Assembly: GCF_003334255.1 (NCBI RefSeq)
Contig: NZ_QOWU01000248.1
Reading direction: 5' to 3' (one strand)
Length of the DNA: 393 bases
Source: Escherichia coli
GTDB taxonomy: Bacteria; Pseudomonadota; Gammaproteobacteria; Enterobacterales; Enterobacteriaceae
Position numbers and translations under genes: made by a program
In this document: positions 1-194 of the stretch, one piece after another
How the letters are laid out: each line of letters starts with the position of its first letter
Numbering within the stretch: the first letter of the stretch is position 1
The notes under the pieces: model-generated
The model's database searches: none
Seen by the model: the letters and a program-made list of their open reading frames with translations, nothing else
What the model was told of the DNA's origin: nothing

Positions 1-93
1 CACCGGGGTTTACCGCGTTAACGGAGCGCGGCGTTGTCCCCTCATGGTCGCTGGTCCGGTGCGATGGTGGAAGAAACTGGATTTTGTTGCAAC

Positions 94-108
94 TGACAAT
101 CATTATCA
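94..108. promoter_or_regulatory. Fur-box-like site (TGACAATCATTATCA)
   Basis: Matches the Fur-box 7-1-7 palindrome TGATAATnATTATCA at 13 of 14 defined positions. The extended 19-mer at 89-107 matches GATAATGATAATCATTATC at 15 of 19. The regulated transcript and its direction are not evident in the window. Confidence 0.4.
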
Positions 109-194
109 TTTTGCCGGGTCCTTTCCGGCGATCCGGGCCGTTACGGGGCGGCGACCTCGCGGATTTTCACTATTTATGAAAATTTTCCGGGATC

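Follow-up and report, generated by a model that had tools for sequence, protein, structure and literature searches.

In Escherichia coli K-12, the sites assigned to nohB (25.3 bits; coordinate 579824) and nohA (22.3 bits; coordinate 1634624) are among the strongest predicted binding sites of the iron-responsive regulator Fur according to Chen et al. 2007, who also reported that a nohA oligonucleotide was gel-shifted by 150 nM Fur, that Vassinova and Kozyrev had recovered a nohA fragment in an in vivo selection for Fur-binding DNA, and that the nohB site is to be credited to ref 1 of their list (PMC2189734). Chromatin immunoprecipitation (ChIP) followed by sequencing (ChIP-seq) placed an FNR peak summit at 1634625 at nohA, and nohA was classed as Fur-repressed (PMC3688515). 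Here we analysed a stretch of 393 nucleotides (nt) of E. coli DNA (contig NZ_QOWU01000248.1; hereafter the window) that contains the palindrome TGACAATCATTATCA at positions 94–108 on the + strand, and we found this palindrome to be the counterpart of the nohA/nohB-type Fur sites, i.e., a further copy of a documented element in another lambdoid prophage. Input from an iron regulator at such a place, which an earlier note on this DNA had called unusual, has been on record for K-12 nohA and nohB since the 1990s to 2007.

This window covers the cos region of a lambdoid prophage of E. coli. Chromosomal prophages of E. coli match it at 100% identity and PhiR12 phages at 99%, and in the matching records it lies between lysis genes and a gene annotated as “terminase small subunit / Nu1”. 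In an alignment to the joined ends of lambda (J02459), homology begins at the palindrome and continues to position 190, with 86 of 98 bases identical over window positions 93–190. The Fur site is 7 bp left of cosQ (the packaging-termination subsite), 37 bp left of the top-strand nick in cosN, and approximately 240 bp upstream of the small terminase gene. The nohA and nohB sites share with the window site the palindrome family, a location 6–7 bp left of cosQ, and a distance of approximately 230–245 bp to a Nu1-type terminase gene. They differ in that the window site has C instead of T at core base 4, in that the window has cosB repeats and a small terminase of a different type, and in that its left flank is unrelated to theirs and lacks the FNR box, the divergent DUF3950 gene, and the σ70-like −35 element found there. 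A Fur-like 19-mer 3–8 nt left of cosQ, at the left edge of the cos homology, characterizes sites of the nohA/nohB type; the window site has this arrangement, with a spacer of 7 nt.

The window reads GTTGCAACTGACAATCATTATCATTTTGCCGGGTCC around the palindrome. Compared with the 7-1-7 Fur motif TGATAATNATTATCA, TGACAATCATTATCA has 1 mismatch and agrees at 13 of the 14 specified bases; any match to this motif with ≤2 mismatches arose in 1 of 200 dinucleotide-preserving shuffles of the window. Agreement with the classical 19-bp box GATAATGATAATCATTATC amounts to 15 of 19 bases by hand alignment, and a pattern search of the window with that box at ≤3 mismatches gave no match. The earlier description of 94–108 as a near-consensus Fur box is accordingly right as to position and true in the 7-1-7 and 9-1-9 readings, and untrue in the classical 19-bp reading. 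We chose the 9-1-9 register of the information-theory model over the classical consensus and built a symmetric 19-bp Fur matrix from 12 K-12 sites that were footprinted or gel-shifted per Chen et al. (fepA-fes, fepD-entS, entC, gpmA, fhuA, ryhB, sodA, fecI, fecA, fhuF, cir, and yoeA; PMC2189734), with the noh sites excluded. On this matrix, the 19-bp site ACTGACAATCATTATCATT at 92–110 scored 19.6 bits, a value attained by 0.05% of 2000 shuffles, while the second-best position in the window scored 2.1 bits; proven Fur sites scored 18.1–28.1 bits when left out one at a time, and the gel-shift-positive lambda/nohA site scored 19.1 bits. Positions 92–110 thus form an inverted repeat with a score typical of proven Fur sites. 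The same 9-1-9 motif, at a comparable score, is found in the entC, fhuA, cirA, and ryhB operators and in the stx1 promoter of Stx1 phages. Classical Fur operators, in contrast to the window site, sit over a known promoter and control a known gene by repression; the window site has no predicted promoter, and the nearest downstream gene is approximately 240 bp away across the whole of cos.

The sole departure of the window site from the consensus is a T to C change at core position 4, where the in vivo Fur motif determined by ChIP with exonuclease treatment (ChIP-exo), TGAnAATnATTcTCA, has “n” (PMC10164565). It is highly unlikely, in our estimation, that the palindrome is a look-alike that Fur does not bind and that a phage protein or another host protein uses instead; the match of only 15 of 19 to the classical box and the presence of an FNR ChIP-seq peak at the nohA site (PMC3688515) would fit such a view, but the changed base falls at a degenerate position of the motif, the score of the window site is on par with that of the gel-shifted lambda/nohA site, and three other variants are bound by Fur in vitro or in vivo.

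Lambda and the prophages Qin and DLP12 have the palindrome at the same place. Lambda carries a perfect 7-1-7 match, TGATAATCATTATCA, 6 bp left of cosQ (bp 48452–48466 by our own count), the palindrome of the cryptic prophage Qin is identical to the lambda sequence, and that of DLP12 is TGATAATTATTATCA. By our own arithmetic for the conversion between genome versions, the published nohA coordinate is the exact centre of the Qin cos palindrome and the published nohB coordinate lies within 1 bp of the DLP12 centre; the nohB site reportedly comes from a Fur titration study of 1994.

Two further copies coincide with Fur peaks in other E. coli strains under iron-replete conditions. In CFT073, Gao et al. 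2023 (Dataset 2) listed a ChIP-exo peak, P53, at 1424699–1424711, which is intergenic and upstream of “nohD” (PMC10164565); in NC_004431.1, this interval overlaps AGTGATAATTATTCTCGTT (21.0 bits; centre 1424701), with GGGTCCT and a lambda-type cosN immediately to its right. For O157 Sakai, the same study placed peak P90 at 2918933–2918945 of NC_002695.1, upstream of the terminase unit of prophage Sp15 (PMC10164565). After conversion to NC_002695.2 with an offset of +125 to +138, calibrated on the Fur sites of the stx1 promoter and cirA, P90 comes to lie approximately 13 bp or less from AATGATAACCATTATCATT, the cos palindrome of Sp15 (27.2 bits; centre 2919064). Like the window site, both are homologous palindromes adjoining cosQ and, in contrast to it, they read TGATAATTATTCTCG (CFT073) and TGATAACCATTATCA (Sp15). 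The left flank of Sp15 belongs to the same family as that of the window, while its cosQ–cosN spacer, cohesive end, and terminase family are different. Binding evidence is thus at hand for four cos-adjacent variants of the palindrome (nohA, nohB, CFT073, and Sakai Sp15), and the weakest of them scores no higher than the window variant. Given that Fur binds palindromes at the equivalent position of homologous loci both in vitro and in vivo, the window palindrome is very probably a real Fur site, and Fur would be expected to bind this exact variant as well.

Two further features of these strains were seen. The CFT073 prophage has a gene for a “TonB family protein” approximately 700 bp left of the Fur-bound cos (L136, 1–281; NC_004431.1, 1423654–1423980). 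In Sakai, stx1 has promoter-proximal Fur sites (centres 2925967 and 2925973) and, in addition, a Fur-like site of 19.1 bits over the stx1A start codon (L138; centre 2925843 in NC_002695.2).

High-affinity sites of this kind could in principle serve the phage as a Fur decoy, with many copies on replicated phage genomes titrating Fur and derepressing host iron uptake, plus stx1 in Stx1 phages. The in vivo selection of nohA fragments as Fur-binding (PMC2189734), the origin of the nohB site, reportedly in a Fur titration study, and the combination, in the Stx1 prophage Sp15, of a 27-bit cos site with the stx1 promoter sites are in line with this idea. However, one site per genome and about a hundred genomes per cell is a small number against thousands of Fur molecules, and a decoy leaves the fixed position beside cosQ unaccounted for; we therefore consider this explanation very improbable.

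The distribution of the site was assessed by a scan of IMG/VR with the pattern cosQ-N(20–22)-CGGGGCGG, which does not include the palindrome. After three obvious chance matches were dropped, 121 usable cos sites were obtained, and a Fur-like 19-mer was present just left of cosQ at ≥11 bits in 94 and at ≥16 bits in 78 of them; across 1.17 Mb of cos loci, 79 of the 101 matches of ≥16 bits sit in this slot. When the sequence beyond the slot on the left was clustered, it fell into 26 unrelated flank families. A site of ≥11 bits occupies the slot in 14 families (≥19 bits in 11 of these) and is missing in the other 12, from which it follows that the Fur site is an accessory element that cos can function without. 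Between the site and cosQ lie 6–7 nt in 27 of 32 distinct variants (range 3–8), and the site is found with at least three types of small terminase and cosB. From these patterns, the Fur site is an accessory element that recurs at the left boundary of the shared cosQ–cosN module. In a scan of genome contigs with the cosQ–cosN pattern, chance matches in high-GC genomes were so numerous that no host range could be derived.

These data also bear on the possibility that Fur binds the site and that this has no role for the phage, the palindrome being carried along with the essential cosQ/cosN core when flanks are exchanged, or being tolerated as an AT-rich block. The site is evidently dispensable, with unrelated sequence or a terminator in the slot in 12 of 26 families; decayed versions of 11.6–16.9 bits exist in some lineages; effects on expression are small and inconsistent; and a cos paper from the Feiss laboratory makes no mention of a palindrome or dyad (PMC4669245). 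On the other hand, homology stops immediately left of the 19-mer in many independent flanks, yet the 19-mer retains 1.41 bits per column, compared with an essentially random 0.31 bits in the 25 columns to its left (one representative per family). Variation gathers at positions that Fur tolerates, with a correlation of r = 0.59 between per-position conservation and the information in the Fur matrix (p of approximately 0.008, which is indicative only, as the families are not phylogenetically independent). Several variants score 24–30 bits, at or above the classical iron-uptake operators, and pure linkage would not hold affinity in this top range. A neutral passenger is hence an unlikely explanation, to which we still give some weight.

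A role in packaging or at the DNA ends was also considered; Fur, or the palindrome itself, might slow a terminase arriving from the left before cosQ and so aid termination, or Fur might mark the right end of the genome. That end lies approximately 37 bp from the Fur site and, in lambda, is injected first. Across families, cosQ alone stays next to the site, at 6–7 nt in most variants, while upstream genes vary, and the occurrence with three types of small terminase and cosB fits a link to the shared cosQ–cosN part; in addition, five families have a terminator hairpin, another inverted repeat, in the same slot, and cosQ works at termination, when terminase arrives from upstream (PMC4669245). Against such a role, many cos lineages have no palindrome at all in the slot, the spacing of 3–8 nt gives no fixed helical phasing with cosQ, and cosQ has been described as a 7-bp site for which no host factor is required (PMC4669245). 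Weighing both sides, we find a packaging or DNA-end function quite improbable. We also know of no report that lambda needs fur.

Other sequence features were seen around these cos sites. The hairpins in the slot are GC-rich, are followed by a T run in the form of an intrinsic terminator, and end 2–3 nt before GGGTCCT; they were found in five of the 12 families that lack the Fur site, in the 25 nt directly left of cosQ at loci L045, L098 (two cos sites), L100 (+ strand cos), and L105. Most families, those with a terminator included, have a T run ahead of cosQ. Several lambda-type prophages have a second strong Fur-like site, ATTGAGAATATTTTTCATT (21.8 bits), which lies approximately 340–350 bp left of cos in L008 (2535–2553), L047 (9852–9870), and L049 (3776–3794); its reverse complement was found in L042 (4919), L051 (972), L055 (5939), and L111 (2817).

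As to function, the proposition that, under iron-rich conditions, the Fur site dampens transcription running rightward into cos and the terminase operon stands, in our judgement, evenly balanced between right and wrong; any effect on transcription, and any benefit to the phage, is presumptive. In an iron-replete cell, a Fe2+-Fur dimer would occupy the palindrome that borders the conserved cos module on its left, where it would act as a repressor of, or a roadblock to, transcription that enters cos and the terminase–head operon rightward from the lysis/accessory region; in phages of the lambda/DLP12 type, Fur would also cover a σ70-like −10 element. Stray terminase expression would in this way be kept low in lysogens, and iron starvation would lift the block; the Fur site would be an accessory that DNA packaging does not need. 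In the prophage studied here, the upstream genes on the same strand are lysis genes and a gene for a Rha-family regulator, and neither a terminator nor a promoter was found between the upstream same-strand gene and cos; therefore, rightward transcripts must cross the Fur site in order to reach the terminase genes. Deletion of fur was associated with higher transcript levels of the downstream terminase unit both in CFT073 (C_RS07355, C_RS07365, and C_RS07370; +1.3 to +2.1 log2) and in Sakai (ECs2961–2963; +1.0 to +1.6 log2) (PMC10164565). At cos sites of the DLP12 type, a σ70-like promoter, GTGACA-16-TATCAT (10 of 12 bases), is predicted to point toward cos, with its −10 element inside the palindrome (L126, 2083–2110).

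Several points weigh against this proposal. Neither the window nor CFT073 has a predicted promoter at or close to the site, and classical repression from an operator over a promoter is therefore not supported here; promoter scans of the window and of 1.1 kb of the parent prophage (L002, 3300–4400) found no σ70-like site. A cloned fragment from upstream of nohA/B gave low promoter activity (PMC1802558). In W3110 Δfur, the genes flanking the DLP12 and Qin cos sites were down, and in MG1655 they were unchanged; the K-12 ChIP-exo sheets of the same study list no peak at nohA or nohD (PMC10164565), which may be due to reads that map to both of these near-identical prophages. The increase in CFT073 and Sakai could result from partial prophage induction in Δfur strains, and not from direct derepression, and blocking of Q-modified late transcription by Fur is still conjecture. 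Fur binding to the exact variant in the window is itself argued from homologous variants. Overall, the published expression data are weak and contradictory, being up in CFT073 and Sakai, down in W3110, and flat in MG1655.

In Dataset 3 for W3110 Δfur (rows for ybcV, ybcW, ylcI, nohD, ynfO, ydfO, and appY), genes on both sides of the DLP12 and Qin cos sites dropped by 2–5 log2 at very low expression, and the DLP12 gene appY decreased approximately 20-fold (PMC10164565). This direction is opposite to that of the CFT073 and Sakai terminase units. The left flank shared by lambda, DLP12, and Qin also contains an FNR box, TTGATGCAGATCAA, approximately 89 bp left of the Fur palindrome (approximately 2005–2030 in L126 and 2175–2200 in L125), which binds FNR by ChIP-chip (ChIP with microarray readout) and gel shift (PMC1802558); a search for a counterpart in the window found none, the best match having 3 mismatches.

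The earlier note had also listed, as candidate targets, a leftward gene beyond the window and an unannotated small RNA or small protein. That the site governs a leftward gene or an adjoining small RNA or peptide would be consistent with the DUF3950 gene (ylcI/ynfO) that starts approximately 150 bp to the left, in leftward orientation, in lambda, DLP12, and Qin, as well as with the divergent unit C_RS07340/C_RS26755 of CFT073, which was up by 2.3–2.9 log2 in Δfur (PMC10164565). However, the upstream genes of the prophage studied here (encoding the Rha-family regulator and lysis proteins) are on the same strand as cos; the left flanks are unrelated between families; and searches of both strands found no notable open reading frame (ORF), no Rfam match, no significant fold, and no promoter. 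We consider regulation to the left, or of a small RNA or peptide, extremely improbable. The GC-rich segment 114–165, once suggested as a transcript or small RNA, turned out to be cosQ plus cosN; neither the Rfam search nor the folding test gave any sign of an RNA. The statement that no well-placed promoter or start codon follows the site was confirmed, given that the window has no σ70-like site and that no long ORF starts or ends there; the lack of a target gene is explained by the cos context. Nor is the site inside a conserved coding frame, as the TGA at 94–96 closes only short frames; in all related loci it ends open frames of ≤55 codons, and no conserved gene is present.

Two other interpretations of this part of the window were rejected. 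The window showed no Rfam match at E values up to 1, and positions 1–113 had a folding z of −0.14, which is at chance level, leaving no sign of a small RNA; the palindrome as a terminator would form, by eye, a very weak hairpin at most. The GC-rich stretch at 1–93, left of the palindrome, is common to Stx1 phages (approximately 93% over window positions 1–190) and to Sakai Sp15 (approximately 1573–1665 of L137, minus strand); it contained no ORF of >20 codons, no Rfam match, and no significant fold.

A literature search combining Fur with cos site/prophage, or with Nu1/iron, returned nothing relevant. The Fur papers that we examined record the site and do not mention cos (in the main text of PMC10164565 the word “phage” appears nowhere, and the phage context is not discussed), and no purpose for the phage is stated in the searched literature. 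The adjacency to cosQ and the breadth of conservation described here are a modest addition to a known element. A stronger version of the argument would be that the palindrome is a true, selected accessory subsite of cos that links packaging termination, handling of the injected end, or terminase/late-gene expression to host iron via Fur, and that it was overlooked as the Fur field filed it under “nohA/nohB” and the packaging field defined cos without it; this version seems doubtful to us, though not negligible. Either way, one of the highest-affinity Fur sites of E. coli lies in the packaging region of lambda-like phages, including lambda and Shiga-toxin phages, and is kept across unrelated flanks. 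If Fur occupancy does affect terminase expression or cos processing, then the supply of iron, which is an important cue in the gut and in infection, would act directly on whether a prophage stays quiescent or yields virions. A precedent for a host DNA-binding protein with a site embedded in the lambdoid packaging region is I1, the IHF site of lambda cosB, which differs from the Fur site in that it lies between R3 and R2 and has a proven architectural role in packaging initiation (PMC4669245), whereas the Fur site lies left of cosQ, outside the defined subsites.

The remaining features of the window follow the lambdoid cos plan. The Fur site in the 9-1-9 register (92–110; 7-1-7 core 94–108), which aligns with the lambda palindrome and the K-12 nohA/nohB sites, is followed by a T-rich spacer, TTTTGCC (109–115, + strand), between the Fur core and cosQ. 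The heptamer GGGTCCT at 116–122 (+ strand), which we take to be cosQ, is identical to the heptamer located 24–30 bp left of the right end of lambda in J02459. Cleavage within cosN (141–162) is predicted after 145 on the top strand and after 157 on the bottom strand, at the same distance from cosQ as in lambda; positions 141–145 (TTACG) match the last 5 bp of lambda, and the 12-nt cohesive end GGGCGGCGACCT (146–157) is identical to lambda bp 1–12. I2, which extends from cosN to cosB (158–190, + strand), has 31 of 33 bases identical to lambda bp 13–45. Both cosQ, a highly conserved 7-bp subsite, and I2, which is needed for efficient packaging termination, have been characterized previously (PMC4669245).

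Four copies of the R-like repeat CATGTCCGGTT make up cosB, at 195–205 (+ strand), 253–263 (− strand), 283–293 (− strand), and 290–300 (+ strand, 1 mismatch), against 0.08 expected, and no shuffle contained four. The repeats at 195–300, which had been called a phage- or plasmid-like operator array, are thus the cosB sites of the small terminase and are followed by the terminase gene; their placement between cosN and that gene and their mixed orientation fit the lambda cosB layout (PMC4669245). Downstream, the 5′ end of the small terminase subunit gene begins with a GTG at 341 and runs through 393 (+ strand), continuing past the window; its product matches Pfam Phage_Nu1 (PF07471; E = 1.4e-18) and PHROG 57/1790 (terminase small subunit), an NCBIfam search gave no family, and the gene is annotated as a terminase small subunit in the identical records. 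Genes for the large terminase, a head-tail joining protein, and the portal follow. The window hence combines a cosN with the lambda cohesive end and conserved flanks, lambda spacing from cosQ to the nick, and cosB repeats followed by a Nu1-type gene; the IHF consensus WATCAANNNNTTR was not found in the window at ≤1 mismatch. Not every lambda-like phage has an IHF site between its first two R repeats, so the window can be a lambdoid cos region without one.

Two further repeat structures are found at the right end of cosB. Two overlapping R-like repeats form the palindrome AAAACCGGACATGACCGGTTTT at 276–307, approximately 35 bp upstream of the terminase start, which receives a terminator score on both strands. 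Positions 310–338 contain a direct repeat, TTGTGAGGTGAG and TTGCGAGGTGAG, with copies 17 nt apart; 2 nt separate the end of the second copy from the GTG at 341, and within this copy the purine-rich GAGGTGAGGA resembles a ribosome-binding site of the terminase gene.

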